Below are positions 9,550 through 27,877 of a stretch of 39,192 nucleotides of DNA, in pieces. How positions within the stretch are numbered: position 1 is the first letter of the stretch; every line of letters begins with the position of its first letter. The notes below the pieces were generated by a model. That model saw only the letters and a list, made by a program, of their open reading frames with translations. It did no database searches and had not been told where the DNA came from. This stretch comes from a virus, in IMG/VR virus record IMGVR_UViG_3300026488_000006, positions 1 to 39,192 of that record; one strand, given 5' to 3'. The position numbers and the translations under genes are program-made.

Positions 9550-10803
9550 TCACTTGGAGCTTAGTGCCTTCGCCACGCTGACAGCCACGACGGCCCCAAC
9601 GCCGAGCATGATGAAGTTCGCCATCTTGTCCAGGGCTGAGCCACCGCCACCACCGCCTGAGCCACCGCTCGGCTTGGTCGCGTTGGCCACGTCGGTCACG
9701 TGCTTGAGGAGCTCCTGACAGGCGGGGTTGTTCGGGTCGCTACACGCGCTCGTCACGAAGTTGATGTACTGGCTGAAGGCCTCGGCGCGCTTCTTGTCGG
9801 CCTCGGCGTAGATTGCGTCCACCCTGACGACCTTGACCGCGAAGGCGATGGCTATGACTATCACCGCCAGCGCCACGAGGACGTAAACGACCGGCATGAG
9901 CTCCGGCCCGAGCGAGCCCGCCTTGACCACGGGCACGAGCACGGTGTAGGTGCCGTCATGGTTCTTGACGATGTACGGCCCACGGAGCTTCTGCCCGGCG
10001 TAGGTGTACTCGTAGGTCGTGTCAACAACGAACCCCAGGGGCGCCACCATCTTGGCCGTCTCCTGCACGGCCCTGGCCAGCACGTCCTCCATCTTGGGGC
10101 ACTTCTTGATGATGCCCAGCACTTTCTGGCACTCGTCCTCGACCGTCACGGCCAGCACGGCGCGGTTGGAGTTCAGCAATACGCCCGGCGGGGTCATTAG
10201 CGACGCCTGGTAAGCGACCCAGTAGTAGCCACGCGGGATTGTGACCCCGAACTTCTGCTCGAACTCCTGTATTGTCTCCTCGGGCACGCTCGCGTTGGGG
10301 AGCCTCAGCCTGGACAGCATGACGCCGTTCTGCCAGTCGGTCACCTGGTCCTTGAGCTCGCGCTCCGGAGGCTGGTTTGGCCCGGCGTACTTGAAGCCGA
10401 TGACCGTCGAGTAGTCCACGAAGAGCACTGGCACGGCGTCAATGACGTTCACGCAACCCACGTCCGGCACCGGCAACACGGGGCCATGAGCGTTGGGGCT
10501 CTTCTGACCGCACACCTCGTGGCTGAAGTACTGGTACATTGCGAGCCACAGGTTGGGGCTCGTCCAGAGCGCCACGTCCCCATTCTCGCCGTGGATGGTT
10601 TTCTTTTTCCAGCTCGGCTTGGCCTCGGGAATCTCGCCGGTCTCAACGTCGAACGGTACGTATGTGGCCCGGTAAGTGCCCTGCCACGCTCCCCGTGCGA
10701 GGAGCACCCAGAGCGCGTAGGTCAGCTTGTCCATCGGCTTTGATGGGTCAACCGGCGTCAGCCCGACCGCCTCGACGTAGCTCATCCTGTCCTTGTAGCT
10801 CAT
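9550..10803 (-). CDS. Putative membrane-anchored virion/envelope protein (417 aa)
   Basis: RBS GAGGTGA before ATG; internal hydrophobic helix; Gly-rich linker (SGGSGGGGGGS) followed by a C-terminal transmembrane anchor. Confidence 0.6.
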   Translation of the reverse strand: MSYKDRMSYVEAVGLTPVDPSKPMDKLTYALWVLLARGAWQGTYRATYVPFDVETGEIPEAKPSWKKKTIHGENGDVALWTSPNLWLAMYQYFSHEVCGQKSPNAHGPVLPVPDVGCVNVIDAVPVLFVDYSTVIGFKYAGPNQPPERELKDQVTDWQNGVMLSRLRLPNASVPEETIQEFEQKFGVTIPRGYYWVAYQASLMTPPGVLLNSNRAVLAVTVEDECQKVLGIIKKCPKMEDVLARAVQETAKMVAPLGFVVDTTYEYTYAGQKLRGPYIVKNHDGTYTVLVPVVKAGSLGPELMPVVYVLVALAVIVIAIAFAVKVVRVDAIYAEADKKRAEAFSQYINFVTSACSDPNNPACQELLKHVTDVANATKPSGGSGGGGGGSALDKMANFIMLGVGAVVAVSVAKALSSK

Positions 10804-10818
10804 CTCTCGTCACCTCGG

Positions 10819-11682
10819 TTATTCCTTGTGGGTGGCCTTCGCGAGGGCGTAGGCCGTCACCAACCCGGCTCCAAGGAGCGCGAGGCCGGCTAAACTATTT
10901 TTTTCCTCCGTCGTGTTGACCCCGGGGCCGGGCCCCGGCCCGGGCCCCTCTGCCGGCTTTATCTCGACAGTTATTGTATTCTGGTAGGCGAGCCGGTCAT
11001 CGACATAAACTTTCACGACTGCCTGTATCGTCCCCTTTGCGTTCTTTGGTATTTGGATGGGTAGGTTAAAGCGGGCTCCATAGGCGCCCTTTGTCGTCAC
11101 CGGGCCGGACTTCACGGTTCCAAACGGCGTGTCCATCTCGGCGAGGAACTTGTGGGTGTTGTAGTCATTCAGCACGCGGGCGTTCACAGTGACGGTTAGG
11201 GTTCCACCCGCCTTGACGGAGCTCGGCGCATTTATGCTCACGTCAACCTTTGGTAGCTGGTACTCGCCTGCCTTGACCTTTGCGCTGGCTATTAGTGTCC
11301 CGCTCGGCACGTCGGCAGGGCTGGCGAAAGCAACGATGGTAACGCCTTCCTCCGGCATCGTTATGTAGCCAACGGTCGCGATTTGGCACTTGTTTAGCTT
11401 AACGGCGCCGAGCTTTGTCCCCTTCTTGTTGCTCGCCGTGATGTAAGCATCCGGCCCTGTCCCCTTAGCGTACCAAACCTCAATGGTCACCGGGAAACTC
11501 TTCCAAATGGCCCAGTCCGGCACGCCGACGATAACCGGCACCTTCTGCCCCGGAGGTGCCGAGGCTGGCACATTGAGTATCTCTTCGGGGCACGGCTGGG
11601 GGGTCGGTTCGGGGCCGGCCTGGCTAACGTTCACCCCAAAGGACTTGGTATCAACAACGTGCCACTCCGCCATCTCCATCAC
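10819..11682 (-). CDS. Putative surface protein (about 285 aa) with C-terminal TM anchor
   Basis: N-terminus MAEWHVVDTKSFGVNV is paralogous to the N-terminus of 12185..12496; PGPGPGPG linker then hydrophobic anchor. True start is probably the third ATG (about 11673). Confidence 0.6.
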   Translation of the reverse strand: MMEMAEWHVVDTKSFGVNVSQAGPEPTPQPCPEEILNVPASAPPGQKVPVIVGVPDWAIWKSFPVTIEVWYAKGTGPDAYITASNKKGTKLGAVKLNKCQIATVGYITMPEEGVTIVAFASPADVPSGTLIASAKVKAGEYQLPKVDVSINAPSSVKAGGTLTVTVNARVLNDYNTHKFLAEMDTPFGTVKSGPVTTKGAYGARFNLPIQIPKNAKGTIQAVVKVYVDDRLAYQNTITVEIKPAEGPGPGPGPGVNTTEEKNSLAGLALLGAGLVTAYALAKATHKE

Positions 11683-11686
11683 CCCC

Positions 11687-12136
11687 TCAACTAAGCAATA
11701 ACAACATGGCGCCGGCGATTAGCCACCAGGGAACGTTCCCTTCCTCCTGAGCTTCCGCCTGGGCCGTTGCCCCCTGTTTGGCGGTGGGCCCGAGGATGGT
11801 CACCGCGAACGTCGCCGTGCCGAGTAGGCGCCCGTACTTGTCCCTTACTTCGAGGGTAAACGTTCTCTTACCGCCCGGGACTGTTCCCTTACACGCAATT
11901 GGATACCCTGTCACCGTGCGTCCGGGAACGACCGTGCACCCCGGCACTTGGACTGCTAAACGGACGATGGTTGGTGGCTGGAGGTCCCTTATCGGGCCCG
12001 CGCGCCACTCGTAGCCCATGCCCTTCAACACGAGGACTGCGTCGAAGGGTACGGGCGCGCCCTTAATCTTGACCCAAACTGTCATGACTTCGCCCGGCCT
12101 ATAAATCTGCTTCTCGGGTATGGCTTCAACTTCCAC
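11687..12136 (-). CDS. Putative membrane-anchored protein (149 aa)
   Basis: RBS AAGGAGGTGAT before GTG start; C-terminal hydrophobic anchor (VPWWLIAGAMLLLLS). Confidence 0.55.
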   Translation of the reverse strand: MEVEAIPEKQIYRPGEVMTVWVKIKGAPVPFDAVLVLKGMGYEWRAGPIRDLQPPTIVRLAVQVPGCTVVPGRTVTGYPIACKGTVPGGKRTFTLEVRDKYGRLLGTATFAVTILGPTAKQGATAQAEAQEEGNVPWWLIAGAMLLLLS

Positions 12137-12184
12137 AGAGCATCACCTCCTTGCGTGCCGGGGTGCACGGCTCCGCACCCCGGC

Positions 12185-12496
12185 TCAGTAGTAGGCGCTC
12201 AGCGTCACGGTTCCGGTGTAGTACCCCGGCTTGGACGGTGCCGTAAGGTCGAAAGTCAGCTCGACTTTTTGCCCGGCCCTGTATGCTGTCCCGTTCTGTG
12301 AGTATGTCTTGCCGAAGATGTTTATGGTGGCGCTGACTGGCACCGGCCTGTCGGTCGGTATCGCCCACACCGTCACCGTAAACTTCTCCCCGGCGCGCAC
12401 TTCCTTCGGGACGCTTACACCCCATTTTATGTTTGGCGCGGGCATCTGGACGTTCACCCCGAAAGTTTTTTGCCCAACAACGTGCCACGTTGCCAT
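12185..12496 (-). CDS. Hypothetical beta-rich protein (103 aa), paralog of the N-terminal domain of 10819..11682
   Basis: RBS AAGGAGGTGGTG before ATG; shared N-terminal motif MATWHVVGQKTFGVNV. Confidence 0.55.
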   Translation of the reverse strand: MATWHVVGQKTFGVNVQMPAPNIKWGVSVPKEVRAGEKFTVTVWAIPTDRPVPVSATINIFGKTYSQNGTAYRAGQKVELTFDLTAPSKPGYYTGTVTLSAYY

Positions 12497-12538
12497 TCCA
12501 CACCACCTCCTTCCTTTTTGTCGTTATGATTTTAACCC

Positions 12539-12850
12539 TTATTTGAGCGCCTGGATTAGATACTCAATGAGCGTGATAATTGCCCCTAAAACTGAAATTG
12601 CGCCCCACAAGCGGTTCCTATCCCGTTCGAGGCGCCGGATGCGCTCCTCGTGGTCTTTGAACTTTTCGTCGTGCTCGCTTTTGATTTCCCCAATCATCCG
12701 GGCCACAGAGTCGTTGTTCTCATCTATCTTCCTGCTGAGTTGCGTTAGCATTTCTTTCACCCACTCCATATCCGTGGACAACTTTGCCATAGCAACGGCG
12801 AGCCCTTCCTTCGATAGCAAGCTGGCGTCATAATTGGTTTTGTCATCCAC
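12539..12850 (-). CDS. Coiled-coil protein with C-terminal TM helix (103 aa)
   Basis: RBS GGGGGGTGA before GTG start; heptad-like charged region; hydrophobic C-terminus. Confidence 0.5.
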   Translation of the reverse strand: MDDKTNYDASLLSKEGLAVAMAKLSTDMEWVKEMLTQLSRKIDENNDSVARMIGEIKSEHDEKFKDHEERIRRLERDRNRLWGAISVLGAIITLIEYLIQALK

Positions 12851-12864
12851 CCCATCACCCCCCG

Positions 12865-13155
12865 TTAATCCCAGTCTTCCATTTCAGACCGCTTGTCATT
12901 AACGAGGACCTTATGGAGGGCATCATGGAGCTGGGCAACGTCCAACTTGAGCGCCTCAACGTCGCCAACAAGCTTCCGCACTTGTTCCTTCAGGAGCCTA
13001 ACGTCTTCTTCGAGGTCTCTGATGGACTTTTCCAACGCGGTGACGCGCTCCTCCTTAACGGCCCTTCCTGTTTTTTCCATTAACCACTTTGCCCCAATGA
13101 GGGCGAGCGCCCCACCGGCCAACGTTGACACGAAAGCGCCGAGGTCAAACGCCAT
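12865..13155 (-). CDS. Small membrane protein with N-terminal TM helix and coiled coil (96 aa)
   Basis: RBS GAGGTGAAGGAG before ATG; N-terminal hydrophobic segment. Confidence 0.5.
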   Translation of the reverse strand: MAFDLGAFVSTLAGGALALIGAKWLMEKTGRAVKEERVTALEKSIRDLEEDVRLLKEQVRKLVGDVEALKLDVAQLHDALHKVLVNDKRSEMEDWD

Positions 13156-13519
13156 GCTCCTTCACCTCGATGGTGTACTTGTGGGCGAGCCACCCGTGCC
13201 TTACCGTGATTGACACGCGCCTCGCGTTGCACTTCATAGCGGTGACCCACACCGTGGTTTTCTTGGAGACCTCCAGCTCGATTGAGCCGGAGCCCCTGAC
13301 CTGAGAGCTCCCCTCCACCAGCACTATGAAGTCTGAGCCCGGTACTTCTATCTTGACCTTCACGGGCGTGAAGTACGGCTCAATCTGGGCGCCGAAGATT
13401 ATCGCACCGCTCTGGCTCTTGATTAGCTTTCCGTCGTCGAGCCCGAGCAATGTGACGCTCGCCGGCCCCTTGCCAAGGATGAAATATAGGATTTGGCGGA
13501 GGAGCTCACGCCACCGCAT
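13145..13519 (-). CDS. Hypothetical protein (124 aa)
   Basis: ORF tiled in operon; RBS weak. Confidence 0.45.
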   Translation of the reverse strand: MRWRELLRQILYFILGKGPASVTLLGLDDGKLIKSQSGAIIFGAQIEPYFTPVKVKIEVPGSDFIVLVEGSSQVRGSGSIELEVSKKTTVWVTAMKCNARRVSITVRHGWLAHKYTIEVKEHGV

Positions 13520-13525
13520 ACCGCA

Positions 13526-13996
13526 TCACGGGAATGTTATTGTGACGTAGATGTCGAGCAAGATGGTGTTGTCCTTCGTTATGGCGGGGTCAATGTTCAC
13601 GTGGTTGATGAGCGTGCCGGTGGTGTAGTCGTTGCCGTCCGTGTGCTCATAGATGCCCGCCTCGGTATAGGTGTAGCCGTTCGCCTCCTCGGGCATGTAG
13701 CGGACGTAGTACTGCACCGTGTTGTTGCTGACCGTCAGCTGTCCGGTCTTGGCAGTCGAGGCGACAGGCTGGAAGAGGCCGGTGTCGCTCTCGCTGGGCG
13801 TCCCGGAGCCGGTACCGAGGACCAGCATCCAGTTTGAGGAGCCCTGGCTGTTGCCCCACGCCTGCGCCAGTAACTTCTTGAACTCCGTCGTTAGGACGTT
13901 CTTGCGCTCCACCTCGTCCAACACGGCGCCCGTGCGGGCGTCCCTTATGACGAACTTCCAAACGGCCTTGGCTGTGGCGGTTTCCCCAACCTTCAC
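13526..13996 (-). CDS. Putative structural protein (156 aa), paralog A of an adjacent pair
   Basis: RBS AAGGAGGTGAT before GTG; shares motifs with 14009..14713 (VLGTGSGTP.SD.TGLF, RYMPEE.NG.T.TE.G.YE, KD.T..D.YV.I). Confidence 0.6.
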   Translation of the reverse strand: MKVGETATAKAVWKFVIRDARTGAVLDEVERKNVLTTEFKKLLAQAWGNSQGSSNWMLVLGTGSGTPSESDTGLFQPVASTAKTGQLTVSNNTVQYYVRYMPEEANGYTYTEAGIYEHTDGNDYTTGTLINHVNIDPAITKDNTILLDIYVTITFP

Positions 13997-14008
13997 GTTA
14001 TCACCTCC

Positions 14009-14713
14009 TTAAACTTGGTTCACGTAAATGCTTACGTACACGTCAATCATCTTCGTGTCGTCCTTCTCAATCGGGGACGGCAACATAGCGTGCTCGAAGA
14101 GCTGGCCGTTCTGGTACTCCTGTGGCGGGATGTAGTGGTGCTCATAGACCGGGTTCCCGCCGACGGTCGGCGTGTAGCTGTACCAGTGGAACGGGATGTT
14201 CTCATAGACGCCGACCTCCGTAATGGTTTGACCATTGAGCTCCTCGGGCATGTAGCGGGCCCAGTAGCGCCAGCCGTTGCTCAGCTGTTCGAGCTTTGCG
14301 TCGGCGCCCCACGGCAGGGGTGTGATGACGAGCCTCTCGCCGACCTTCTCGTTCTGGTTGTTGTAGATGTCCTCAACGGAAATGCTGAGGCCGTCTTGAC
14401 CCTCGCCACGGGCCGATGCGTTGATGGGGTTGAACAGTCCGGTGTCGCTCACGTCCGGCGTCCCGGAGCCGGTGCCGAGGACGATTGCCCACTGCGGGCG
14501 CCTGTAAAGGGAGATGTCGTTCGGGCACTGATACGTCTCGTCGGGCTTCTTGTACTCCGCGACGAACTTGCCGGTGAGCCAAGCCTGCTGGAGTAGGGCG
14601 ATGCCGGCCGAGGTGATAACGTTGTCCGTCTCCACCTTCCAGCGCTCGCCGGTCTCAACGTCCGTGACCACGACCATCACGTGCCCCTTGATAATGGCGC
14701 CGTTAAGTTTCAT
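14009..14713 (-). CDS. Putative structural protein (234 aa), paralog B of an adjacent pair
   Basis: RBS GGGGGTGGTTGA before ATG; conserved blocks shared with 13526..13996. Confidence 0.6.
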   Translation of the reverse strand: MKLNGAIIKGHVMVVVTDVETGERWKVETDNVITSAGIALLQQAWLTGKFVAEYKKPDETYQCPNDISLYRRPQWAIVLGTGSGTPDVSDTGLFNPINASARGEGQDGLSISVEDIYNNQNEKVGERLVITPLPWGADAKLEQLSNGWRYWARYMPEELNGQTITEVGVYENIPFHWYSYTPTVGGNPVYEHHYIPPQEYQNGQLFEHAMLPSPIEKDDTKMIDVYVSIYVNQV

Positions 14714-15348
14714 TCAACCACCCCCAGCTCCTTAAGGATGTCTGATAGGGTTTTAACCCGTCTGACCAATCCGATGCCCTTTATTCTGTGACGTATCATC
14801 CAGATGTTGATGAGGCGAGATTTTGTTTCTGGTGGGAGCTGTCCGAGTGTCGTTGTGGTGGGCACGGATTTTCCAATTTTTCTTGCTATTCTTTGTGACG
14901 CTTTGGCCCCGAGTATTTTCTCCCCGTTGATATAAACCCCCTCTGTGCGCAGTTCTACCTTCGAGAAGTCGTCAGGTATGTCGTCTATGCTGAATGGGTC
15001 ATTTGGGTCGTTGTGTTTTAGCATCAAGCTGGTTTGGAACAATACATCGTCGCGAGGGAAGATGTATTGTTCTTCGTTTGGAAGGAGTTCGAGTATTGCC
15101 CGGTCAATATTCTTTATGCCTTCTATGACTTCGACCCCGGGAACATTGCGGTACTGTTCAATATCCCTGTCGTCAACTACGAGACGTATCTCGTAGCCGT
15201 CTTCGAGGTTCTGCACTAATGTGTAGAGGCCGGGGTCTCTTGGATTGATGCCACCTGCCCTTTCTCCTGTTTGGAAGTTCACTTTTATTTTCAGGGCCAC
15301 ATATCTTTTTAAGTTGCGTAAGTCATTCAACAACACCACCTCCTTCAC
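14710..15348 (-). CDS. Hypothetical protein (about 205-212 aa)
   Basis: Start codon ambiguous: RBS AGGAGGTGGTG lies inside the track N-terminus, so the true start may be a TTG near 15330. Lower-GC sequence. Confidence 0.5.
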   Translation of the reverse strand: MKEVVLLNDLRNLKRYVALKIKVNFQTGERAGGINPRDPGLYTLVQNLEDGYEIRLVVDDRDIEQYRNVPGVEVIEGIKNIDRAILELLPNEEQYIFPRDDVLFQTSLMLKHNDPNDPFSIDDIPDDFSKVELRTEGVYINGEKILGAKASQRIARKIGKSVPTTTTLGQLPPETKSRLINIWMIRHRIKGIGLVRRVKTLSDILKELGVVE

Positions 15349-16835
15349 TTACCGCCTATTCCTTGAGTGTCTGACCCAGGAGCTCCGCCTGATTTAACTA
15401 TACTAAAGTCTGAGGGGGACAGTTGGTATAATCTACCGGAGTTATCAGAGTACCAGATAATTTCGGGGCTACCACCTATACCGCGAGGCGTGGATGTGGG
15501 CGCAGATGCGTTGCGTATTATACTAAAATCGTCAGGGGATAGTTCGTATATTGTTGAGGAACGCTGTCCTTTGACAGTCCACACTGTTGAATAATCACCC
15601 CCTGCTCCACCAAGGTAAGATGTTAAACTTTTACTCCTTAGGATAGATAAATCTTGAGTTGATACTTCGTACACATTGCCATTGTTCCAATTGGAGGCCC
15701 AAAATGTGTTGTCATCTCCTCCGGCGCCGGACATACCAATGTATGAGCTACTAAGATGGTTACTGCGCGTCAAGCTGAGGTCTTGGGGTGAAATTTCGCA
15801 AAGATAAGCAAGACCACTGGCAAACCAAATGACATCTTTGTTACCACCTATTCCTTGTGGGTAGGCATAGGGACTGGGTGTTGACCTGACTACTGAAAAA
15901 TCGTTGGGTGAGAGTTCATATATTGTATCATTTCCATCGTCAACGTGCCACACTACGTGTTGGACAACTGGTTCTGTTGAGACCGAGATTGAGTCCACGC
16001 TCGCCTGCTCCTCGGCCAGCGTGCTGAGGGCGCCCTTCTGGTACAGCAACCTGTCGCTGGCGTACACTGAGTTGGCGAAGGCCCTAATGACCAGCGTCTC
16101 CCCGCCCTGCGGAACGTAACCGACAGGTATGTCCTCACTGGCCTGTACTTCGCTTATATCGTAGCTCTCGGCTTCGGAGAAGGTAGCTGATACACCGCCA
16201 TCCACGACCCCAACTTCGCTGACCGAGGAGGTCACGAGGGAAGCAACGTTGTGCGAGCTGGAATCGTTGGTCTCTGCAAGCTCGTCGAACACGAGTTTGA
16301 TGACTTGGGCTTGGTTTATGAGAACGTTTTCCTGTGCGCTAACGGTCTCAATGAGGGTGGGGGTGAGTATTTGGCCGGCCCATACTTCCACATTGGCCTC
16401 GTCGAGGAGGCGCTCGTTTATGGAGGATGTTACACGGTCGGCCGTTTTTGTTGCAACGGAGTCAGTGGCCCCTTGAGTGTCGCCGGCCGTCCGATATTTT
16501 CTCAGCTTGGTATCATAACTTAGGCCGTCGGTGCTGGCCTGCTCCTCGGTCAGTGGCCTGATGACCAGCGGTCTCTCGACTGCCGTCGCGCTGTCGTTAA
16601 TCAGGTACTCAAGCTCCCTTGCCACCACCTCGTCGGCTATTACGGCGATGGCGTCCTCCGGGACGGCGGTTCTTTCTCTGACCGTGTATGCGTACCTGCC
16701 GTGGATTATCACGAGCGTGGTGTCTCCGCTGTGGTGGACCTCGGCCTCGACGGCCTCGCTGAGTAGGTCAATTAACTTCCTCGGCCCGAATCTTGTACTG
16801 CCGACCTTCAGCACCGACGGCCAGCGCCTCCTCAT
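15345..16835 (-). CDS. Repeat-containing protein (496 aa) with beta-propeller-like C-terminal repeats; candidate receptor-binding protein
   Basis: RBS GGGTGGGGTGAAGT before ATG; at least 5 repeats of about 45 aa in the C-terminal half (pattern IYELSP.DFS..RS ... GIGG ... W); AT-richer than neighbours. Confidence 0.6.
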   Translation of the reverse strand: MRRRWPSVLKVGSTRFGPRKLIDLLSEAVEAEVHHSGDTTLVIIHGRYAYTVRERTAVPEDAIAVIADEVVARELEYLINDSATAVERPLVIRPLTEEQASTDGLSYDTKLRKYRTAGDTQGATDSVATKTADRVTSSINERLLDEANVEVWAGQILTPTLIETVSAQENVLINQAQVIKLVFDELAETNDSSSHNVASLVTSSVSEVGVVDGGVSATFSEAESYDISEVQASEDIPVGYVPQGGETLVIRAFANSVYASDRLLYQKGALSTLAEEQASVDSISVSTEPVVQHVVWHVDDGNDTIYELSPNDFSVVRSTPSPYAYPQGIGGNKDVIWFASGLAYLCEISPQDLSLTRSNHLSSSYIGMSGAGGDDNTFWASNWNNGNVYEVSTQDLSILRSKSLTSYLGGAGGDYSTVWTVKGQRSSTIYELSPDDFSIIRNASAPTSTPRGIGGSPEIIWYSDNSGRLYQLSPSDFSIVKSGGAPGSDTQGIGGK

Positions 16836-16838
16836 ACT

Positions 16839-17150
16839 TCACCCCACCCACATGACGTAAATCTTCTGTGCGTTTTGCCCGCTGACAACGTAAACCTTTC
16901 CGAGGTTGTCAATCACGATGTCCACGCTCTCACCGGGGTCGAGGGCGAACCCGGTCCCGGTACTAACCGAGTCGTCGAAGCCGATGTAAACGGCGTCCGT
17001 GTTGGCCTTGTCGGCCTTGATGGTGACCATCTTCACCTCCAGCGCCCCGAGGGCGGTCGGCGTCGTGCTGACTGTGAACTGAAAGGTCCCGCCCTTCGAG
17101 GGCGAGCCCAGGAGGTCTTTCATTGCGCGGTAGCTAATCATGGCGACCAC
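16839..17150 (-). CDS. Small beta-rich hypothetical protein (103 aa)
   Basis: ORF tiled in operon; stop overlaps the RBS of the next gene. Confidence 0.5.
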   Translation of the reverse strand: MVAMISYRAMKDLLGSPSKGGTFQFTVSTTPTALGALEVKMVTIKADKANTDAVYIGFDDSVSTGTGFALDPGESVDIVIDNLGKVYVVSGQNAQKIYVMWVG

Positions 17151-17563
17151 CTCACCTGTCTGCCCCCAACCTCAAGGGTCGCCACCACGTTGGAGCTTGG
17201 GCTTTGGTTCACCTTGACGTAGAGCGCGAGTGCTTTAAGGCCAGTTAGGGCTCCAAAGTCCGAGGCGTCAAGGAGGAGTGTGCCGGTGGTGTTCTTAGCC
17301 AGCAGGGGCGTGCCACCCTCGTCCGTCGTGGCTATGACGTTGCCCTCTGTACCGTCTGGGAGGGTAATACGCACATACGAGACATCGAGTAGGTAGCCGT
17401 CATCAGGCTCGAAGGTGGCGGTAAACTCTGACCCCACCGGTGAGCCGGCTGGTATAGTCAGCTCGACCTTAGAACCCTTTGGTATTGGCTTGTAGGAGCT
17501 GAAGGTCGGCCCAAGCGCCCGCTTGAGTCGGTCATAATCAACACCTATCGAGCGCCCAAGCAT
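17138..17563 (-). CDS. Hypothetical protein (141 aa)
   Basis: ORF tiled in operon. Confidence 0.5.
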   Translation of the reverse strand: MLGRSIGVDYDRLKRALGPTFSSYKPIPKGSKVELTIPAGSPVGSEFTATFEPDDGYLLDVSYVRITLPDGTEGNVIATTDEGGTPLLAKNTTGTLLLDASDFGALTGLKALALYVKVNQSPSSNVVATLEVGGRQVRWSP

Positions 17564-17574
17564 TGCTCATCACC

Positions 17575-18159
17575 TCACGGCAGGAACCCGGTGTACTGGC
17601 TCGGTGCCACCGGCGGTAAAGTAACCGGCTGTCTGGGCCGTTCCGGCTGTCTGATTGGCTGGTTCAGGAGCTGGATTATCGTTTCAATGCCAAATATGAC
17701 CCTAAGTGAGTCAACGAAGACCCCGATGTCGGTCACTTCGAGGATTAGCACGTCGTAGTTTACCGTAGCATCGGTGGAACCTGGGACTGCCGTAATTGTC
17801 AGCGTGCCCTTTAGGCTCAAAGGTGGCTGGGGCGTGAACTCTGCTGTGTATTTGCCGGCCGGGTCGTAGTTGGCTACGTAGGGCATGTTGCTCTTGTCAA
17901 AGTAGCCAGCGTCGTAGAGTTCCTGCGGTATGAGGGAGAACTGGAGAGACTGTCCGCTCTCTTCGGGGTCGTAGGATATGCGTAGGCCCGCATCTGCTAC
18001 ATCGGTGCTGACGCGGGCGCTTATGAGCCAACCGAACTCGCCGTTTTCACTTTCGTAAAGTTCTTTTGGGGCGTCGTCGGCGTTTAGTTTCTCGCTACCG
18101 TTCACTCTAACCCAATTCCATCCATTGAGGATGGGGAGTAACCCGAGTATGTCCACCAT
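17575..18159 (-). CDS. Hypothetical protein (about 194 aa)
   Basis: Track ORF 17575..18231; start moved to ATG at 18159, preceded by GGTGGGAGG and directly after the upstream stop. Confidence 0.5.
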   Translation of the reverse strand: MVDILGLLPILNGWNWVRVNGSEKLNADDAPKELYESENGEFGWLISARVSTDVADAGLRISYDPEESGQSLQFSLIPQELYDAGYFDKSNMPYVANYDPAGKYTAEFTPQPPLSLKGTLTITAVPGSTDATVNYDVLILEVTDIGVFVDSLRVIFGIETIIQLLNQPIRQPERPRQPVTLPPVAPSQYTGFLP

Positions 18160-18163
18160 AGTA

Positions 18164-18727
18164 TCATTCCTCCCACCAGTCAACGCGGATGCTAATCTGA
18201 TTGGCGTTTGAGCTTTTGTTGATGACTTCAAAGAGGACGCTGTGTCCCGGTGGTATCACGAAGGCTACGAGGCCCTCGTCCATACCGCCGACCGCTTTGT
18301 TGCCAGAGCCTCCAGGGATGACCTCTTCTCCCACCACAGTACCGCCGGAGTAGTTGGTCACGTCAATGATGACCTGTGCCACGCTCGTTGCAGTGGAACC
18401 GACCCGGAACGGGACGGGCTGTATCTGGGTCCCGCCTTGGAGTGTGGGGTCAATGACGTACTTAATCCACGCCTGGTCTGTCGTGCTCATCTTGGTGGTC
18501 ATGATGTGGATAGTTTTACCGCTCCCGGCCGGGTTGATGATGGTTAGGTCGGCAGTCGCTCCGCTGGAGATGTGGGGCCAAAGCTTTGAAACGAAGAACG
18601 CCTTGTCCTCGCTGGCCTTTATCTGGTACTGGGTGTAGGCGATGGTGTGGTCTGTGTCAGCTTTTGTAATCTTGGCGTTGATTTCTGCCGTGTTGGGGTC
18701 GCTCCTAAACACTCCCGTTACGGTCAC
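18164..18727 (-). CDS. Hypothetical protein (187 aa)
   Basis: ORF tiled in operon. Confidence 0.5.
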   Translation of the reverse strand: MTVTGVFRSDPNTAEINAKITKADTDHTIAYTQYQIKASEDKAFFVSKLWPHISSGATADLTIINPAGSGKTIHIMTTKMSTTDQAWIKYVIDPTLQGGTQIQPVPFRVGSTATSVAQVIIDVTNYSGGTVVGEEVIPGGSGNKAVGGMDEGLVAFVIPPGHSVLFEVINKSSNANQISIRVDWWEE

Positions 18728-18731
18728 CCCC

Positions 18732-19046
18732 TCAGATTAGTTCGTAGGTGACCGTAACGAGCACCGTACCACTTGCACTTAGGGAGCCAACGAGTTTGAA
18801 TCCCCTATCGAGGTCGTAAACGCCCCAGCACCCGTCAGCCATCTCGCTCTGGCCGGACTGGAGCACGATGGTGTCAACGTCCTTGCTGAGCGAGCCGTCC
18901 GGGCTGACTTGCTTTAAGCTGACGTTCACGGCGGACGAGCCGGTGTTGACGAACTTGACGTAGCGCACCCTGACCTTGCGGTGCTTTGGCGGGACTATAA
19001 GGTCAACTTCGGTCGTGTCGGTAAGGGTTTTGTGCACCGTCGGCAT
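18732..19046 (-). CDS. Small beta-rich hypothetical protein (104 aa)
   Basis: ORF tiled in operon. Confidence 0.5.
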   Translation of the reverse strand: MPTVHKTLTDTTEVDLIVPPKHRKVRVRYVKFVNTGSSAVNVSLKQVSPDGSLSKDVDTIVLQSGQSEMADGCWGVYDLDRGFKLVGSLSASGTVLVTVTYELI

Positions 19047-19049
19047 TCA

Positions 19050-19709
19050 TCACACCCCCGTACCCATTAGCTCGTTCCACCTCTTTGATGCGTACTCAAA
19101 TAGGTCGTCTCCAACGAGCTTTTTAAGCCACATCGGGGCCTCGTATGGCTCAAGGAAGGTGTATATCTTGCAGGCCTTCTTGCCCTCGATGAGGGAGTCA
19201 ATCTTCTTCGTGTCCCTGATGACGCGGTAGGAGTACTTGGCGATGTCGAAGCTGAGCATAGCGTAGATGTCCTGGCCACTTTGGTTGCTTATCTTAAAGC
19301 TCGGGTAGAGGTCGAGGAAGGTTATTAGCTCAGCCCTAGCGTCCGGGTCCTCGAACGGGCTTATTATGCCGTCAATCCACTTTGTCTTGCCGGGCACTGA
19401 ACGAGTGCCACGGAGGCTGTACCTGGCGACCCTTGGCGGAAAGTCGAGGTAAACCTCCGCCTCTTCTGGCGCAACGCCGACGAAGGTGTGCAGTATGAAC
19501 CTCTCGCGCTCGGGCTCAAGAACTCTATCGTTCGTCCCTGGGAAGGTTGGTTCAATCCAGTCGGTGGTCTTGCCGGCCTGAACCACGCCAACCTCGTACG
19601 GCTCGTAGCTCATTATTTCTCTACCTGTCACCCTAAAGAACACGGGGCCCTCACGGAAGGCCACCGCGAGGTAGTGTCCGGGCTTAAGGAATTCTGGCTT
19701 TTCGCGCAT
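19050..19709 (-). CDS. Hypothetical protein (about 219 aa)
   Basis: Track ORF 19050..19724; ATG at 19709 after RBS GGGAGGTGGTGA; TATA-like TTATTTATAA about 95 nt upstream on the minus strand. Confidence 0.5.
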   Translation of the reverse strand: MREKPEFLKPGHYLAVAFREGPVFFRVTGREIMSYEPYEVGVVQAGKTTDWIEPTFPGTNDRVLEPERERFILHTFVGVAPEEAEVYLDFPPRVARYSLRGTRSVPGKTKWIDGIISPFEDPDARAELITFLDLYPSFKISNQSGQDIYAMLSFDIAKYSYRVIRDTKKIDSLIEGKKACKIYTFLEPYEAPMWLKKLVGDDLFEYASKRWNELMGTGV

Positions 19710-19831
19710 TTCACCACCTCCCAAAGTTATAACTGCCGAGAACAGTGTTCCCGGCCTTCTCTCTCTTCGGCCGTCCGGTCACCTTTGCCACCTCCGTTAC
19801 GGAGTTATAAATAAGGAAAAGATGTTAGGCT

Positions 19832-20515
19832 TCAGAAGTGGGTCTTGAAGAACCTACCGCGGGCGACGGTGAATCCAAGGAGCTTCAGCTCGCCGGTGGT
19901 CGGGCTGGAGCTGTTGGCGTCCGGGCTGTGAACCTCAATCTTGTAGTAGTCCTTCGGAACAATGGGGACGCTGTTAAAGTTCCAGACGGCGACGCCGTTC
20001 CTGTTGTCCTTTATGACGGCGTTGCTAACGTCAATCGGCAGGAGCTGTCTCTGGCCGACGGCGAACCTAATGCCGTCAATCCTGGCGGTGACGTCGGTGC
20101 CGTCGTAGAAGTCAACGATACCGAAGATGAGGTATCCGGCGTCGTCGTGTGCGGTGCCCTCGGCGAGGGTCTTCCACTCGGCGTCGAAGCTGACCTTGAA
20201 CCTGTCGCCGTAGGCAGTGACGCCGGCGCCGAGGGTGCTGTTCCCGCCGTTGTCAACGAAGTGGCCTGGCCTAAGCGGGGTGAGGCCAATCTCCATGTCT
20301 GACGCAACCTGGCCACCGAACTTGGCGCCACCGAGGCTGTGCTTGACAGCCTCAACGAAGCCCCTTATCTGCCTCTTGTAAGTCTGGAGGAGCTCGTAGA
20401 TGACGCCATCCTTGGGGCCGAAGAGGTTGTCGAGCTGGGCGTTCAGCTTGGCCTCTTCCTTCGGGTCGAGTGGAAGGGTGTTAAGGTCGGTGTCAATAGA
20501 CTCGAACCTAACCAT
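19832..20515 (-). CDS. Hypothetical protein (227 aa), candidate virion protein
   Basis: RBS GGGGGTGAAGAGCA before ATG at 20515. Confidence 0.55.
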   Translation of the reverse strand: MVRFESIDTDLNTLPLDPKEEAKLNAQLDNLFGPKDGVIYELLQTYKRQIRGFVEAVKHSLGGAKFGGQVASDMEIGLTPLRPGHFVDNGGNSTLGAGVTAYGDRFKVSFDAEWKTLAEGTAHDDAGYLIFGIVDFYDGTDVTARIDGIRFAVGQRQLLPIDVSNAVIKDNRNGVAVWNFNSVPIVPKDYYKIEVHSPDANSSSPTTGELKLLGFTVARGRFFKTHF

Positions 20516-20529
20516 TGCTCTTCACCCCC

Positions 20530-20967
20530 TCAGAACAAATACTCCTCCTCTTCCTCTACTGGAGCCGGCTGGGTCTCAACCGGAGCCGGGGTGACGGCCA
20601 CGGTAATCGGCTGGGCGACGGGGGCGCTCATAGCGACCTTGTTCCAGGTGAGGCCGAGGTTGCTGGCGACCTTATCGGCGAGCTGGTCGGGCGAAACCTT
20701 GTCGTTAACCCACTCCCAGATTGGCGGGAACAGCGCACCGAAGACAGCGTAGCCCCTCCACTCGGGGTGGCCCATCTTGTCAGCGACCCAGCTCATCAGT
20801 CCGGCGCCAAGGACGTTTCCGAAGTAGCCGAGCCACTTGTTGCCGTTGCCGGCCCTCTCAAGGACGCCACCGATGACGGCGCTGGCGAGGCCGGAGACGG
20901 TCGCGTATCCGAGGCCGACGACGGTCTTCTCCGTGAAGATGTTCTTTATGTCCTCAACAAATCCCAT
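20530..20967 (-). CDS. Putative membrane protein (145 aa) with acidic C-terminal tail
   Basis: Gly/Ala-rich hydrophobic segments; C-terminus EEEEYLF. Confidence 0.55.
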   Translation of the reverse strand: MGFVEDIKNIFTEKTVVGLGYATVSGLASAVIGGVLERAGNGNKWLGYFGNVLGAGLMSWVADKMGHPEWRGYAVFGALFPPIWEWVNDKVSPDQLADKVASNLGLTWNKVAMSAPVAQPITVAVTPAPVETQPAPVEEEEEYLF

Positions 20968-21007
20968 CTCGCGTCACCTCCATCCGCTAAATAATGAGGG
21001 GTGGGCG

Positions 21008-21442
21008 TCAGAGCCCAGCGCCTCTGAAGAACTCTCCAGCCTTGTATGTGCCATACTCTTCGCCCTTCTTCGCCCTAAGCATAGCCTCAAGCTCAGCGAC
21101 GGTGTGGTAGCTCTTCTTGACCCTGCTCGGGTATTCCTCAGGCTTCATAGCGTCTGGGGCGCGGTAACCCCTCATCTCCTCGGATATCCTCCTCAGCCTC
21201 TCGGCGAGAGGCATTCCCTTGGTGGCGCTCGCAATCTTGGCGAACTCCAGCCTGGTCTCAATCTGGCCGAGGTGCGGGCTCTCGATGGTGTACGGGAGGT
21301 TCGCGAGTATAGCTCCGCTCTTCTTGACCCACCAGCGCGCACCGACGCTCTGGATGTAGAATCCCTTAGCTCCGATGTTATTCATAGGAGTTGCCTTACC
21401 GGCGAGACCGGCAACGAGGGTCTGGGGCCTTATCTTCGTCAT
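21008..21442 (-). CDS. Hypothetical protein (about 144 aa), candidate abundant structural protein
   Basis: Track ORF 21008..21532; ATG at 21442 after strong RBS GGAGGTGGTG; own TATA-like box (CATAAATATC) upstream. Confidence 0.5.
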   Translation of the reverse strand: MTKIRPQTLVAGLAGKATPMNNIGAKGFYIQSVGARWWVKKSGAILANLPYTIESPHLGQIETRLEFAKIASATKGMPLAERLRRISEEMRGYRAPDAMKPEEYPSRVKKSYHTVAELEAMLRAKKGEEYGTYKAGEFFRGAGL

Positions 21443-21649
21443 CTCAACACCACCTCCAGTGGTTCTTTTTGTTGCCGGGTTTCGGCCCCCGGTAGGGCTC
21501 CCGGTCTCGTTCTCTGTGTATGTTTTTTGCAAAAGAGATATTTATGTCTTTCGCTCCGCAAAACCCGCCCTTTGCAGAAAGCAATGTTTCGCATGTGGTT
21601 GGTCAACGGTTGAGTTTACAAATGTAAAAGAAAAGGTTGCGTGGCACAG

Positions 21650-22174
21650 TCACTCCAGCGCCCACTCAAGGATGTCGAGGAGCTTGTCGAGCTTTGTCCT
21701 CGGTCTCGCCCACCGCTTGCCCTTCAACAGCTTCACCATCGCCTGACTCTTTGTGAGCAGTTGGCCGTCAACGAGGACGGCCTTCTTACCCACGAGCCCC
21801 GGCCTGCCGAGGTATCTGCCAACGTCCACAACCTCACCACCCACGAGCTCCGCAACCTCCTCGTGGCTCAACTCTCCGGCGAGCTTTGCCAGCTTTGCCA
21901 TTTCCTCCCACGCCTTCCGCTTCGCCTCGGTCGGTGGCTTCTCCGGCGTCCGGCGGAAGTAAATGGTGTCACCCCTTTTGGCAACCACGACGGCCCTTGA
22001 GCCCTTCATAGGCTTCGCCGGCGTGCTCATAGCCTTCCGGTAGAGCCTTTCCAACCTCGCGAGCCTGTCCTGGTCGAGAGGTCCCCCATTCAGCTCCACC
22101 GCCAACGGCGACGGCTTGAGCTTTGGACGCCCTTCTTTGAGCTCGTAGGCGACCTTGGTTAGGAGTGTCTCCAT
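21650..22174 (-). CDS. Hypothetical basic protein (about 174 aa)
   Basis: Track ORF 21650..22219; ATG at 22174 after GAGGTGGTGCTT, directly after the upstream stop. Confidence 0.5.
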   Translation of the reverse strand: METLLTKVAYELKEGRPKLKPSPLAVELNGGPLDQDRLARLERLYRKAMSTPAKPMKGSRAVVVAKRGDTIYFRRTPEKPPTEAKRKAWEEMAKLAKLAGELSHEEVAELVGGEVVDVGRYLGRPGLVGKKAVLVDGQLLTKSQAMVKLLKGKRWARPRTKLDKLLDILEWALE

Positions 22175-22184
22175 AAGCACCACC

Positions 22185-22715
22185 TCAGACGCCGAAGCCG
22201 AGGAAGCCGAGCTTCTCAAGGTCGGTTAGCCGGCGCCTGTTTAGGATTTTCACGCGCCCGTTTTCCCACATCATCACGCCTTCTCTGCTGAAGACCTTTA
22301 AGACCTCCTGCGGGTCTTCGTAGCCGAGCTCCCGGATGCGCTCCATAAGCTCCTGTATGTCGTAGTCGCGCCCGCGCAGGTAATCGTAGGCTCGGTCGTA
22401 GGGCTCCGGGATTTTCGGTATCTCGGCGATGAGCTTTGCGACGGCCTTTTTCACGCCGGTCGCCACGCTCCCGTATTGCCTCTCCAGCTCCCTCGCGTGG
22501 TCGAGGGAGATGTAAACGTTGCTCAGCCGGACGGTCTTATACTTGAGCCTCCTTATCTGCGCGGGGCTGAGCTTGTACCCCCAGCGCCTTTCAATCTCGG
22601 CTTGGAGCGTCTTGTCGGTGAACTTGCTAACGACGGGCATCTTACCCCAGTTCTCCTCGACGAACTCCTCAATCTGAGCCAGCACCGGCGCCGGGATGTC
22701 CGCGAGCCTAACCAT
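22185..22715 (-). CDS. Hypothetical protein (176 aa)
   Basis: ORF directly downstream of the giant gene. Confidence 0.5.
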   Translation of the reverse strand: MVRLADIPAPVLAQIEEFVEENWGKMPVVSKFTDKTLQAEIERRWGYKLSPAQIRRLKYKTVRLSNVYISLDHARELERQYGSVATGVKKAVAKLIAEIPKIPEPYDRAYDYLRGRDYDIQELMERIRELGYEDPQEVLKVFSREGVMMWENGRVKILNRRRLTDLEKLGFLGFGV

Positions 22716-22721
22716 ACCCCA

Positions 22722-25700
22722 TCACCTCAGCTCCTTCCTCAACTCCGCAACGAACTTTTCATATATCTCGTTGAACGGCCAGGGGAATTCTGGCTCGTAG
22801 CCAAGACTCTTCAGCACCGTCGCGGGCACCACTGCGACCAAGTAGAACATCGTGGGCTCGCAAAGCCAGCCCTTCTCGTTCTCTCCGAGCTCGTCCTCAA
22901 ACTTGACCTGCACCGTGAAGTGGTTGTAGTCCGCCTTGTGGCAAATCTTTCTGTGCTTTCTGAGGAAAGCCAGCACGGCAGTACTGTAAGGCTCGCCCGC
23001 CTTAGCATTCCTCTTCAGCCATGCACGTATGAGGCTCGCAACCTTCCTATATACCTCGTGGATGCCACCCTCGACCAGAGCACCGCCCGCCTGCTCCACA
23101 GCGTATAGCGCCATCGCTTCGGCGAACGTCAGCGGGGCCCTCTTCTTCCTGTCTATGTACTCGCCGATGATGTTCTCCCCGAGCCACTTCTTGAGAAAGT
23201 CGGCATACATGCTGGCGTCCGAGTGAGTCTTGGCCTTCTCCTTAAGGTAGCGCTCAACGCCATACCACAGCATAGCTGAGAGCTCGCGCGGGTCTTCGAG
23301 GGCCCGACTGAGCCACTCCGGCACCTCGCCGAGGTACTGGTAGATGTTCTTTGGCTTCGATAGTTCTTTCCTCCGCTCGACTATCTCAGTTGCTGAAACC
23401 ACCCCACCCGAGCGCTTCTTCATCTCGACCGGGAGCTCTCGGCGCCCGACCTTTTGGTTGTACACACTTGTGGCCAACTTCGAGGCTTCGATGACGGCGC
23501 TGTCGAACGGGAGCTCGCCCTTGGCCACCATATCCGCGAGAACCCATAGGTCGCGCTCGATGTCGGGGAGCACGAAGTCGAGGTCAATGTTGCGCTTGAG
23601 TAGTCTGCGGTCGAGGCTCTTGAGTAGGCGCTCATAGGTGGCTCTAACTTCCTCTGGCACTTCCGGTGCTCTTCTTGGCTCAATCTCTTCGCTTATGGCC
23701 TCTTCTTCCGGCGTCAACTCCTTCACCTCCCTTTCGGCCCTGCGCTCGGGTTTTGCACCCAGCATTTTCTTCGCTTCCTCGACCTTCGCCTTCGGCAACG
23801 CCTTCCGCGCCTCCTTCATCACGATGGCCATCGCCCTCGGCTGGGTGAGCCTGCCTTCATAGACCTCGCGGGCGAGGCGCTCGATGAGCTCAAGCGGGGG
23901 CTCCGGCGGTCTGACATCGTGGAGCTCGAAGTAGCCTTCCCAGGTGTCGGTCAGCTTGCGCCTGATGAAGCGGAGGTCTTCCTCCTCCTGCGTCGCCATC
24001 TCGGCGACTTCTTCGAGCGGGAGCTCCGTCGCCTCGCCGTGCACCTTGACCGGGACCTCAACCTCCTCAAGCGGGGCCCCCTCTTTCTCCCCGGCAATAG
24101 TTCTCACCATGGACTCCTCCGGGATTTCGGCCTTCTGCTTCTCCTCCAGCTCGGCCTCAAGCTCCGGTAGCTCTTCCGGTGCCGGCGGTAAGTATTCCTT
24201 CGCCAGCTCGCGGACGTGGCGTGCCCATTCTTCCGGCGTCATCCCGAGGCGCCTGGCGAACTCTTCATCATTGGCCAACTGCTCGACCACTTCCTCGGCG
24301 CTGGTGGCACCGTACTGCTCCGGGTGCTCAAGGGCGTCGCGGATGTAGTCGTCAACCTGCCTCAGCAACTCGGCCCGCTCTTCCGTCTCAGTTGGCTTGA
24401 GCTTCCACCTCATAACCTCGGCTCCAGCCCTCGCGAGGAGCGCCTCCTCCTTGTTGGTCGGGAGCGTCCGGGCGTAGTGGACGAGCATATCATAGACCGT
24501 ACGGAACGGGTAGTAGTCGAGCTTCTGCCAGTCATAGTCTTCGACCTCGCTCGGGCTGATTGCGCCGAGGAGGACGAGCGTCTTGGCCACGCGCTCCGGC
24601 GTCGGCTTTAGGCCGAGGTAAAAGCCGAGCTGGGCGCGCTCTATTGAGGGCTTCGGCTTCTCCTCGCGGGCGGGCTTAGGCTCTGGCTGTGCGGACTTGG
24701 CAGTCCCCGGGACTTCTCTCGGCTTTTCCACCTTCTTCTTGCATTTTTCCACCTGTGGTGCCAGGAAGCGCTCAAAGTACGTAGTCACCAGCTCCTGTAA
24801 GTAGTTGGCTTTGACAAAGTTTAGGTGGCCGGGCTTGAGCTCGCGACGGACGACGTTGTAATACCCGCGGGCGTTGTCTGAGATGTGGCACACGCCGTTG
24901 GGGTAGTGTTTCTCGGGGTACAAAAACTCCTCACGGACGCCGAACTCGCGCTCAAGGTGGCGGGCGAAAACGTCCCTCGGAGCTGTCTTGGCGAACTCCT
25001 CGACTTGCTTCGTGAGCTCCGGCGTCACGTAGCGGACGTTGTAGTTTGGCTCATAAGACTCCGATTGTTTTGCTAATGCCTCAAGCTCAGCCTTTACTCT
25101 GTTGAGCGTCTCCCGCACGTCTTCCATCTGCTCCTTGAGCTCCTCGTCGCTCACGCGCGGGTTGCCTATCATCCTCCCAAGCACGCGCACCTTCACCTTT
25201 AGCGAGTTCTTAATGGTCGTGCTTAGCTTCCAAGGGAGCTTTTCCGGCAGGTTCTTGCGGAGCTCTTCGTATTCCTTGATTAGCTTCCTGGCCTCTTCCT
25301 CAAGCGCAAGGCGCTTTTCCGCCTCGGTGCCGGCCTTTGACTTAACGCCCAGCCCGCTCGTCAGGTAGCCGACGTATTTGCAGAAGTCCGGCATATTGGC
25401 GTCCTTCCACGTGAAGTTGGAGAGGTACTGGGCGAGGTAGAGTATCTCGCGGTCGAGCGGGTTGGCGCCGTGCCACTTGGGGATTTTTCCACGCTTTATG
25501 TCGGCACAGGCCATATCGAGCGGTATGAGCACGGCTTTGACCGGCTCGACCTTCCCGGCGTTGTAAAGCTTCCACGCCATAGCCGTGAGCGCCATGAGCT
25601 CCCTAAGCTTCTTCAGGCAGTCGTAGGGGCTCCTGCTGTCCCTACACAACTTATCGTAGTCGGTCCTCAATAGGATGAGCTTTCCGCCCGACAGGCACCA

Positions 25701-27761: not shown

Positions 27762-27846
27762 GCCACCACCCCCTACTCGACCGCTCCCCGATGTTCGTAG
27801 TTAGGCGCTCGAAGTATAAACCATTTTCGCCGGAGCCACCGAGAAA

Positions 27847-27860
27847 CCTATATAATATTG
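27847..27860 (+). promoter_or_regulatory. TATA-like box (CCTATATAATATTG) for the 27878 gene, probably leaderless
   Basis: AT-rich box about 20 nt upstream of the GTG start, in the divergent intergenic region shared with the giant gene. Confidence 0.4.
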
Positions 27861-27877
27861 TACAACGTATCCCCTAA

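Follow-up and report, generated by a model that had tools for sequence, protein, structure and literature searches.

The locus described here raises a question in two parts: does a 496-residue protein with a repetitive C-terminal part recognize the host of the element that encodes it, and is that part exchanged among related elements? The gene lies on IMG/VR virus record IMGVR_UViG_3300026488_000006, whose whole stretch of 39,192 nucleotides (nt) we call the window. A sequence-only reading of this DNA had described the product as a candidate host-recognition protein with tandem beta-propeller-like repeats in an AT-richer segment. We consider it likely that the protein is a modular receptor-binding protein of a complete, circular, probably archaeal virus-like element of ~39 kb. 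The argument turns on three features, numbered along the window:

15345..16835, minus strand: target gene, a putative modular adhesin made of anchor, stalk, neck and propeller (open reading frame table; identical to P0001)
14714..15987, minus strand: exchanged cassette, i.e., the propeller module plus the partner gene, coinciding with the low-GC segment (comparison with contigs L001 and L002)
14710..15330, minus strand: partner gene, 206 amino acids (aa) (homologs and a Shine-Dalgarno-like box)

The target open reading frame (ORF) comprises 496 aa and starts with an ATG 3 nt past the stop of the upstream gene, and a protein of the same sequence and length (P0001) is found in a public protein collection. 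The closest homolog, P0002, is 89% identical across the first 285 residues and then continues into a PQQ_2-type propeller. Its contigs, L001 and L002, are metagenomic and have the gene order of the window. DNA identity between them and the window is 96.0-96.4% down to position 15988 and 97.2-98.5% from position 14713 onward; inside 14714..15987 the comparison gave no DNA similarity. Both junctions are abrupt, the upstream one lying right after the codons for ...VDSI and the downstream one at ATGA, where the stop of the partner overlaps the start of a conserved 234-aa gene. Between these points L001 and L002 carry a PQQ-type propeller and a 92-aa zinc-ribbon-like gene that is unrelated to the partner in the window, and the PQQ_2-type propeller sits on the same anchor in L001, L002 and L005. 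More distant relatives fill the slot differently again, with a truncated anchor protein and a separate DUF2341 protein behind it: in L004 the anchor protein has 324 aa and lacks a propeller, and the DUF2341 protein has 368 aa; in L022 and L023 the lengths are 265 and 710 aa, the 710-aa protein having three DUF2341 domains. The flanking genes of 103, 234, 156, 124 and 96 aa stay conserved in the more distant relatives. As near-identical relatives hold a different cassette between the same two breakpoints, 14714..15987 is a recombinational cassette, in which the propeller and the 206-aa gene form a single unit. Among close relatives the protein thus combines a conserved N-terminal part with a non-homologous C-terminal part, the pattern of an exchangeable tip. 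The sequence-only reading had expected an exchangeable gene and had suggested comparing related elements; that comparison uncovered swapped C-terminal tips, at the limits of the GC dip, with two further alleles beyond the near-identical pair.

Base composition marks out the same segment. In 200-nt sliding windows the GC content is 0.43-0.49 over ~14700-15950 and 0.55-0.66 on both sides, and 14714..15987 has a GC content of 0.466 compared with 0.578 for the window. The lowest 1274-nt stretch of the contig starts at 14691, with a GC content of 0.464 (mean 0.577, standard deviation 0.035). The limits of the dip match the recombination breakpoints to within a few bases. It had been claimed that the target and its downstream gene are together poorer in GC than their surroundings; the dip itself stands, but it takes in the downstream gene and codons 284-496 of the target only, i.e., the last 213 codons, codons 1-283 having a GC content of 0.587. 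GC at third codon positions (GC3) is 0.728 in codons 1-283, 0.385 in codons 284-496, 0.545 in the downstream gene and 0.851 in the next one, and a break of this kind within one gene points to a shift in codon usage and not in amino-acid content alone. This bears on the explanation that the GC content is low simply because of the amino acids that a repeat protein uses, the repeats having arisen in place without any exchange. The repeats are indeed rich in Ser, Asn, Ile, Tyr and Asp with AT-rich codons. However, within a single gene GC3 drops from 0.73 to 0.385, the non-repetitive partner gene is shifted too, and the dip coincides with breakpoints defined against near-identical relatives that carry another cassette, by which this explanation is already refuted; we give it practically no credence. 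Further low-GC islands occur at 36000-38000 (GC 0.48-0.55, holding the DpdA gene), 3500-4500 and 28500-30500.

The repeats in the exchanged part were expected to number at least five, to measure about 45 aa and to occupy the C-terminal half of the protein. Five repeats are present, but the units are 36-42 aa long with a period of ~41, and they span only the last 40% of the protein (aa 295-496). Internal-repeat detection, one of the checks proposed by the sequence-only reading, gave a self-similarity peak at lag 40 for aa 291-496 (z = 8.7, with lags 41/42 and 82/83 also high) against a highest z of 4.2 among 500 shuffles; the N-terminal 290 aa had no self-similarity beyond shuffles. Pairwise local scores among the five units are 35-109, compared with 20 +/- 4 (maximum 36) for shuffled units. 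A blade hidden Markov model (HMM) places the units at aa 295-335, 336-377, 379-417, 419-456 and 460-496, which corresponds to the following positions in the DNA:

about 15831-15953, minus strand: blade 1
about 15705-15830, minus strand: blade 2
about 15585-15704, minus strand: blade 3
about 15459-15584, minus strand: blade 4
about 15348-15458, minus strand: blade 5

Tandem Repeats Finder detected nothing at the DNA level, the copies being too diverged, and the residual DNA matches between copies are short, with spacings of 120, 372 and 492 nt. Judged from their DNA, the copies are old. We modeled aa 286-496 with AlphaFold2 using an 11-sequence alignment. The model contains 20 strands arranged as five four-stranded blades, with a predicted local distance difference test (pLDDT) score of 93.7 and a predicted template-modeling (TM) score of 0.90. 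The C-terminal module is therefore confidently predicted to be a five-bladed beta-propeller, a closed ring with four antiparallel strands per blade. A Foldseek search of the PDB returned solved propellers of many kinds with a probability of 1.0, including the YVTN domain of an archaeal surface-layer protein, BtuG and BamB, and the structural matches also include a PQQ-repeat protein of Haloarcula californiae tailed virus 2. The proposal of propeller-like repeats is thus borne out by formal periodicity, by the model and by its matches to solved propellers.

By sequence, the propeller belongs to none of the established families. For the target, Pfam gave no propeller family at E <= 1, and PHROGs and NCBIfam gave no match; it did not reach the gathering cutoffs of Pfam NHL, PQQ_2, Vgb_lyase or Glu_cyclase_2. 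A profile search (A1) of 1.84 billion representative proteins recovered 2470 clusters at E <= 1e-3, of which 161 reach E <= 1e-30; P0001 itself scores E 1e-73, although it is among the 11 sequences from which A1 was built. We use the set defined by this profile as an unnamed family, referred to here as YELS/GIGG; for genome scans A1 was too diverse and alignment A3 was used. The consensus blade, derived from 757 blades of 150 family clusters, is IWHCDsgtdkIYELStsDFSVIRSassPgtnPrGIGGDsn, and the 41-residue unit can also be written IWHCD....IYELSTSDFSVIRS...P...P.GIGGD. Both glycines are invariant and the variable positions fall in two loops, 6-10 and 29-33. All five blades in the window match the motif IW..D....YEL...DFS..R...P...P.GIGG, and five is also the modal number of blades in the family. 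In other members the propeller is joined to a cyanophage baseplate-plug domain, Laminin_G_3 or DUF2341. The nearest Pfam propeller families, Vgb_lyase (PF24684), NHL (PF01436), Glu_cyclase_2 (PF05096), DUF6923 and SGL, have the fold class in common with the YELS/GIGG family, which differs from them in its own 41-residue unit, its modal five blades and its obligatory partner neighbor. What is new is this family of propeller domains, together with the partner and the element that carries them.

The fold invites a different explanation, namely that the propeller is an enzyme (glutaminyl-cyclase-, lyase- or glycosidase-like) acting on a host surface polymer, or that it has a role unrelated to entry. 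The best structural match of the same size is the five-bladed bacterial glutaminyl cyclase 3mbr (TM 0.66/0.60), a profile search of PDB sequences gave sub-threshold hits only, to papaya glutamine cyclotransferase (2faw, E 0.16) and an NHL protein, and propeller relatives score weakly, below threshold, on SGL, Glu_cyclase_2 and Vgb_lyase (26-37 bits for the latter, against a cutoff of 50). Moreover, five-bladed propellers are common in carbohydrate-active enzymes (PMC4901313). Yet sequence identity is ~10% to every structural match (11% for 3mbr), similarity to the glutaminyl cyclases is not significant by sequence or profile, and neither the target nor its relatives reach the cutoff of any Pfam enzyme family. 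At ~41 aa the blades are minimal, and nearly all conserved positions recur in each of them, which fits structural or multivalent-binding residues and not one active site. An enzymatic tip would in any case remain a host-interaction module. We regard this explanation as improbable and favor a propeller that would bind to the host surface.

The N-terminal 283 residues, which precede the cassette, are themselves modular. The limits below were drawn from an alignment (A4) of five anchor-bearing homologs:

16512..16835, minus strand: module A, aa 1-108, near-invariant N-terminal putative anchor domain (homolog alignment)
16533..16561, minus strand: linker box 1, encoding RPLTEEQAS, just 5' of variable module B (direct repeat family D2)
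16152..16511, minus strand: module B, aa 109-228, mosaic stalk region (homolog alignment)
15987..16151, minus strand: module C, aa 229-283, neck, conserved throughout the five homologs; identity with L001 and L002 at the DNA level stops at 15988
15999..16027, minus strand: linker box 2, encoding STLAEEQAS, just 5' of variable module D (direct repeat family D2)
15345..15986, minus strand: module D, aa 284-496 and the stop, predicted five-bladed beta-propeller (lag analysis, blade HMM, AlphaFold2, Foldseek)

Module A is nearly the same in P0001-P0004 and well kept in P0005 and in the proteins of L022 and L023; it matched nothing in Pfam, PHROG or NCBIfam, and a scan of IMG/VR with the anchor domain gave no match. 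Module B occurs as three distinct sequence types among relatives that have modules A and C in common. Module C ends in ...LAEEQASVDSI, which is the upstream recombination junction. The two linker boxes are identical at 24 of 29 nt (83%), and both copies of the encoded L(A/T)EEQAS(V/T)D box in the target stand directly ahead of a module that varies among relatives, so that the L(A/T)EEQAS box may be a recombination or structural junction motif. The target has neither a signal peptide-like segment nor a membrane segment.

The second gene of the cassette is linked to the propeller well beyond the window. The open frame of the partner extends to 15348; we place its start at the TTG at 15330 because of its homologs and the Shine-Dalgarno-like AGGAGGTG preceding this codon. 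The partner has 28 homologs of 42-73% identity, with 40 invariant columns among 23 aligned members, and as a family it is better conserved than the propeller, for which identity is 27-42%. It matched none of the tail-fiber-assembly families in Pfam, PHROGs or NCBIfam, and its structure model has no solved structural neighbor. A partner homolog adjoins the propeller gene in 14 of 14 loci examined (the window, L006/L007, L008, L009, L010 and nine IMG/VR contigs), upstream of it in most of the other loci and downstream in the window. Family members range from 130 to 206 aa. The short forms, located by tblastn beside propeller loci, are ~130 aa long, match the N-terminal half of the partner and stand directly next to the propeller gene in L009 (a contig of a Bathyarchaeota genome bin), L010 (a Dehalococcoidia single-cell contig) and all nine IMG/VR viral contigs; scans of IMG/VR and GTDB with the alignment of the long partner gave no match because their search patterns were overly specific. 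The partner follows a free-standing 251-aa propeller protein, which ends in GIGGK as does the target, on contigs of 33-60 kb with a GC content of 0.41-0.43; an MCM-type helicase gene is present on one of these contigs. We infer that the present cassette derives from a lower-GC lineage in which a free-standing 251-aa propeller is followed by the same partner.

Several of these loci show additional architectures. The 251-aa propeller proteins of L006 (9231-9986) and L008 (9230-9985) open with three Trp-rich mini-repeats (YWDGSxW-like) before blade 1; in the fused protein of the window, anchor, stalk and neck stand in place of this piece. L010 (JALPYG010000001) encodes at 6007-11610 a protein of 1867 aa with an N-terminal propeller followed by ~20 FN3-like repeats of ~95 aa (motif ERGFEWG...IYYRAKA.N..GWGYG), and this gene is preceded by a 131-aa partner homolog. 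One copy of the same FN3-like repeat is also found after the propeller gene in L009 (6542-6856).

The surroundings of the pair, both elsewhere and in the window, argue for a role in attachment. We scanned large ORFs near the propeller-partner pair in six of the nine IMG/VR contigs and found tape-measure proteins in L016 (E 6e-100) and L015, tail-fiber proteins in L014 and, weakly, in L017, a transglycosylase, and virion-structural and head proteins, with a head protease or capsid protein in L014. Tailed viruses encode their receptor-binding proteins near tape-measure and tail-fiber genes, and the location of the pair thus supports a host-attachment function. The neighbors of the cassette in the window are:

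16839..17150, minus strand: conserved upstream neighbor, 103 aa, all-beta by sequence
14009..14713, minus strand: conserved downstream neighbor, 234 aa, whose ATG overlaps the partner stop (ATGA) at the downstream junction
13526..13996, minus strand: 156 aa, similar to the N-terminal domain of phage tail-collar fibers

The 103-aa protein is 86% identical in L004 and 76% identical in L005, and is found in L022 too. The 234-aa protein matches the PHROG 'tail fiber protein' phrog_4176 (E 8e-5) and is a paralog of the 156-aa protein, which itself matches phrog_18275 (E 2e-17), phrog_4176 (E 1e-7) and, below the cutoff of that family, PF12571 (E 3e-4). Among 50,697 reference virus genomes the sole relatives of these paralogs are ORF164-type proteins of five betalipothrixviruses (E 7e-16), and in AFV9 the ORF164-type gene lies two genes away from an ORF of 1170 aa. 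For such filamentous viruses, a paper on Bathyarchaeia viruses (PMC10541130) describes the large SIRV2 P1070-type protein as the one that makes up the host-recognizing terminal fibers, a role that we do not assign here to AFV9 ORF1170. Together with a propeller relative that has a phage baseplate-plug N-terminus, the tail genes near the pair in IMG/VR and the tail-fiber-N-terminal-like neighbors lend support from context to the host-recognition role that the sequence-only reading had put forward.

What kind of element carries this locus is less straightforward. An exact direct repeat of 127 nt is present at both contig ends (1-127 and 39066-39192) and the copy of the contig in ENA has 14 additional nt; these values fit the k = 141 overlap of a circular assembly, and the ~39,065-bp genome therefore looks complete. 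The contig is probably a complete circular genome of this size. It encodes a UvrD-type helicase (138-1802, minus strand), an N6/N4 DNA methylase (4336-5586, minus strand) and a DpdA-like protein of the 7-deazaguanine DNA-modification family (36321-37271, minus strand; PF23859, E 2e-20). The largest gene (22722..27761, minus strand) specifies 1679 aa with a primase-like region at aa 206-482 (phrog_19458, E 1.4e-34) and had no Pfam match; we rejected it as a tape-measure protein in view of this region and as no tape-measure match was found. The window has no tRNAs, and a comparison with Rfam detected no RNA family.

Several observations weigh against a receptor-binding protein of a virus. No terminase, portal, HK97 capsid or packaging ATPase was recognized among 38 ORFs compared with Pfam and, in subsets, with PHROGs and NCBIfam, a scan that included every ORF of the working list of at least 140 aa and that very divergent versions could escape; the hallmarks of Caudoviricetes (terminase large subunit, portal and HK97-fold capsid) were not found on the element, and indirect signs are what point to its viral nature. 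The propeller had no sequence match in 50,697 reference phage genomes (tblastn), and these genomes gave neither a DNA match to 10000..30000 nor a protein match to the target. The anchor domain has a handful of homologs and no known fold. In addition, about half of the family blades (P0006-P0157) have His-Cys directly after the conserved Trp (IWHCD), and the five blades of the window have none of these Cys and one His only. The absence of this pair could reflect a lost metal or redox site, or another ligand, and the ligand chemistry of the target may differ from that of typical family members.

These points bring up the possibility that the protein is not part of a virion, but a surface or secreted adhesin, diversified by cassettes and involved in cell-cell contact or surface exclusion, of a plasmid or other non-viral replicon. 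In its favor, the genome, although complete and circular, has no detectable capsid or packaging gene, many neighboring proteins have C-terminal membrane anchors, and the propeller family occurs both in surface-fiber-like proteins, such as the 1867-aa protein with ~20 FN3-like repeats on the Dehalococcoidia contig, and in large multidomain proteins with carboxypeptidase-regulatory domains. Against it, the target is without a signal peptide-like or membrane segment, its neighbors match phage tail-fiber N-terminal families and betalipothrixvirus proteins, the same cassette is present in the tail modules of bona fide tailed viruses, and the element encodes a methylase as well as a DpdA-like DNA-modification protein, modification of DNA in this manner having been described in phages. 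On balance we judge a non-virion adhesin unlikely and retain the receptor-binding protein of a virus-like element.

The element is unclassified. A sphaerolipovirus-like layout with a packaging ATPase, jelly-roll capsid proteins of 187 and 218 aa and a spike was considered and is not supported: the only Walker-A-like string, in a 224-aa ORF, comes with no ATPase similarity in Pfam, PHROGs, PDB or reference phages. Two basic, helix-rich ORFs of 174 and 189 aa lying in 21008..22219, candidates for adnavirus-type helical capsid proteins, had no sequence match in the PDB. A single gene family, that of AFV9 ORF164, is held in common with Lipothrixviridae and Adnaviria, whose genomes are linear whereas the contig is circular. 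A run of proteins with membrane anchors, mostly C-terminal, extends over 9550-13155 (minus strand) and includes a PGPGPGPG linker (10819-11682) and a poly-Gly stretch (9550-10803), suggesting a membrane-containing or enveloped particle. For a beta-rich protein of 187 aa (18164-18727, minus strand), Haloarcula tailed virus 2 has a weakly similar hypothetical protein (E 2e-4), and L006/L007 encode a 168-aa protein of 38% identity; the gene for the 187-aa protein is among the few outside the cassette that those elements have in common with the window. The similarities to betalipothrixviruses and haloarchaeal viruses and the matches to DUF7xxx domains, as well as the MCM gene and the Bathyarchaeota bin among cassette-bearing contigs, indicate that the host of this virus-like element is probably archaeal.

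We propose the following model for the receptor-binding protein. The near-invariant N-terminal 108 aa would fix the protein to the particle, and the mosaic stalk (aa 109-228) and conserved neck (aa 229-283) would hold out the propeller tip (aa 284-496), which would contact the host surface, most likely a glycan or a surface-layer component. The whole unit is replaced by homologous recombination, which acts in the neck (...EEQASVDSI) and at the ATG of the following conserved gene; close relatives therefore carry different tips. By analogy with tail-fiber/assembly-protein pairs, the partner may be a cognate accessory that either assists folding or assembly or forms a second tip subunit.

Tailed phages offer classic examples of modular tips swapped along with an accessory gene: in P2 H/G, Mu S/U, lambda stf/tfa and T-even gp37/gp38 the distal fiber and the small gene that follows it are exchanged as a unit by recombination in conserved flanks, which changes the host range. 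Here too the junctions are sharp and the propeller and the 206-aa gene between them are replaced as one, and the partner has the Tfa-type trait of being inherited along with the distal domain. In contrast to these systems, the partner falls outside the known Tfa families and lies mostly upstream of the propeller elsewhere, and there is no invertible segment. A close parallel for the tip itself is Gp45 of Staphylococcus phage phi11, in which an N-terminal attachment part is combined with a five-bladed propeller that has been proposed to bind the GlcNAc of wall teichoic acid and whose best structural neighbor is a glutamine cyclotransferase (PMC4901313). Gp45, the related receptor-binding protein of 80alpha and the target are all modular, with a five-bladed propeller and a cyclase as structural neighbor, a likeness of description and not of superposition. 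However, no sequence similarity between Gp45 and the target was detectable (tblastn against reference phages), the phi11 propeller has ~300 residues and is followed by two 'tower' domains whereas that of the target has 213 residues and is terminal, and phi11 has a bacterial host and a siphovirus virion whereas the host of the present element is probably archaeal. PRD1 P2, with a distorted five-bladed head, and PhiKZ gp131C, with seven blades, are further propeller-tipped viral adhesins (cited in PMC4901313). They and the PQQ-type allele have in common with the target a propeller as the distal host-contact module, but differ in blade number and belong to unrelated sequence families. The protein is thus of a kind already known, a modular receptor-binding protein whose tip is exchanged with an accessory gene as a cassette, and does not introduce a new principle.

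It is tempting to speculate that the propeller and its partner constitute an undescribed and widespread two-component receptor-binding module that moves between tailed viruses and the circular 39-kb archaeal-type lineage. The module is present on contigs attributed to bacteria (the Dehalococcoidia single-cell genome) as well as archaea (the Bathyarchaeota genome bin), and we put this forward tentatively, as an idea about which we remain rather more doubtful than convinced. If it is correct, the window would represent a new virus group and, with L001, a natural tip-swap pair for host switching. To our knowledge, next to nothing has been established about host recognition by viruses of uncultivated archaea. 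The locus provides a bounded natural experiment, in which genomes that are 96-98.5% identical around the gene carry different propeller tips, with two further alleles in distant relatives, and the tip-swap pair pinpoints the presumed specificity determinant without culture. The large unannotated propeller family with its constant partner could mark receptor-binding modules in metagenomic viruses, and is a possible target for structural and glycan-binding work.

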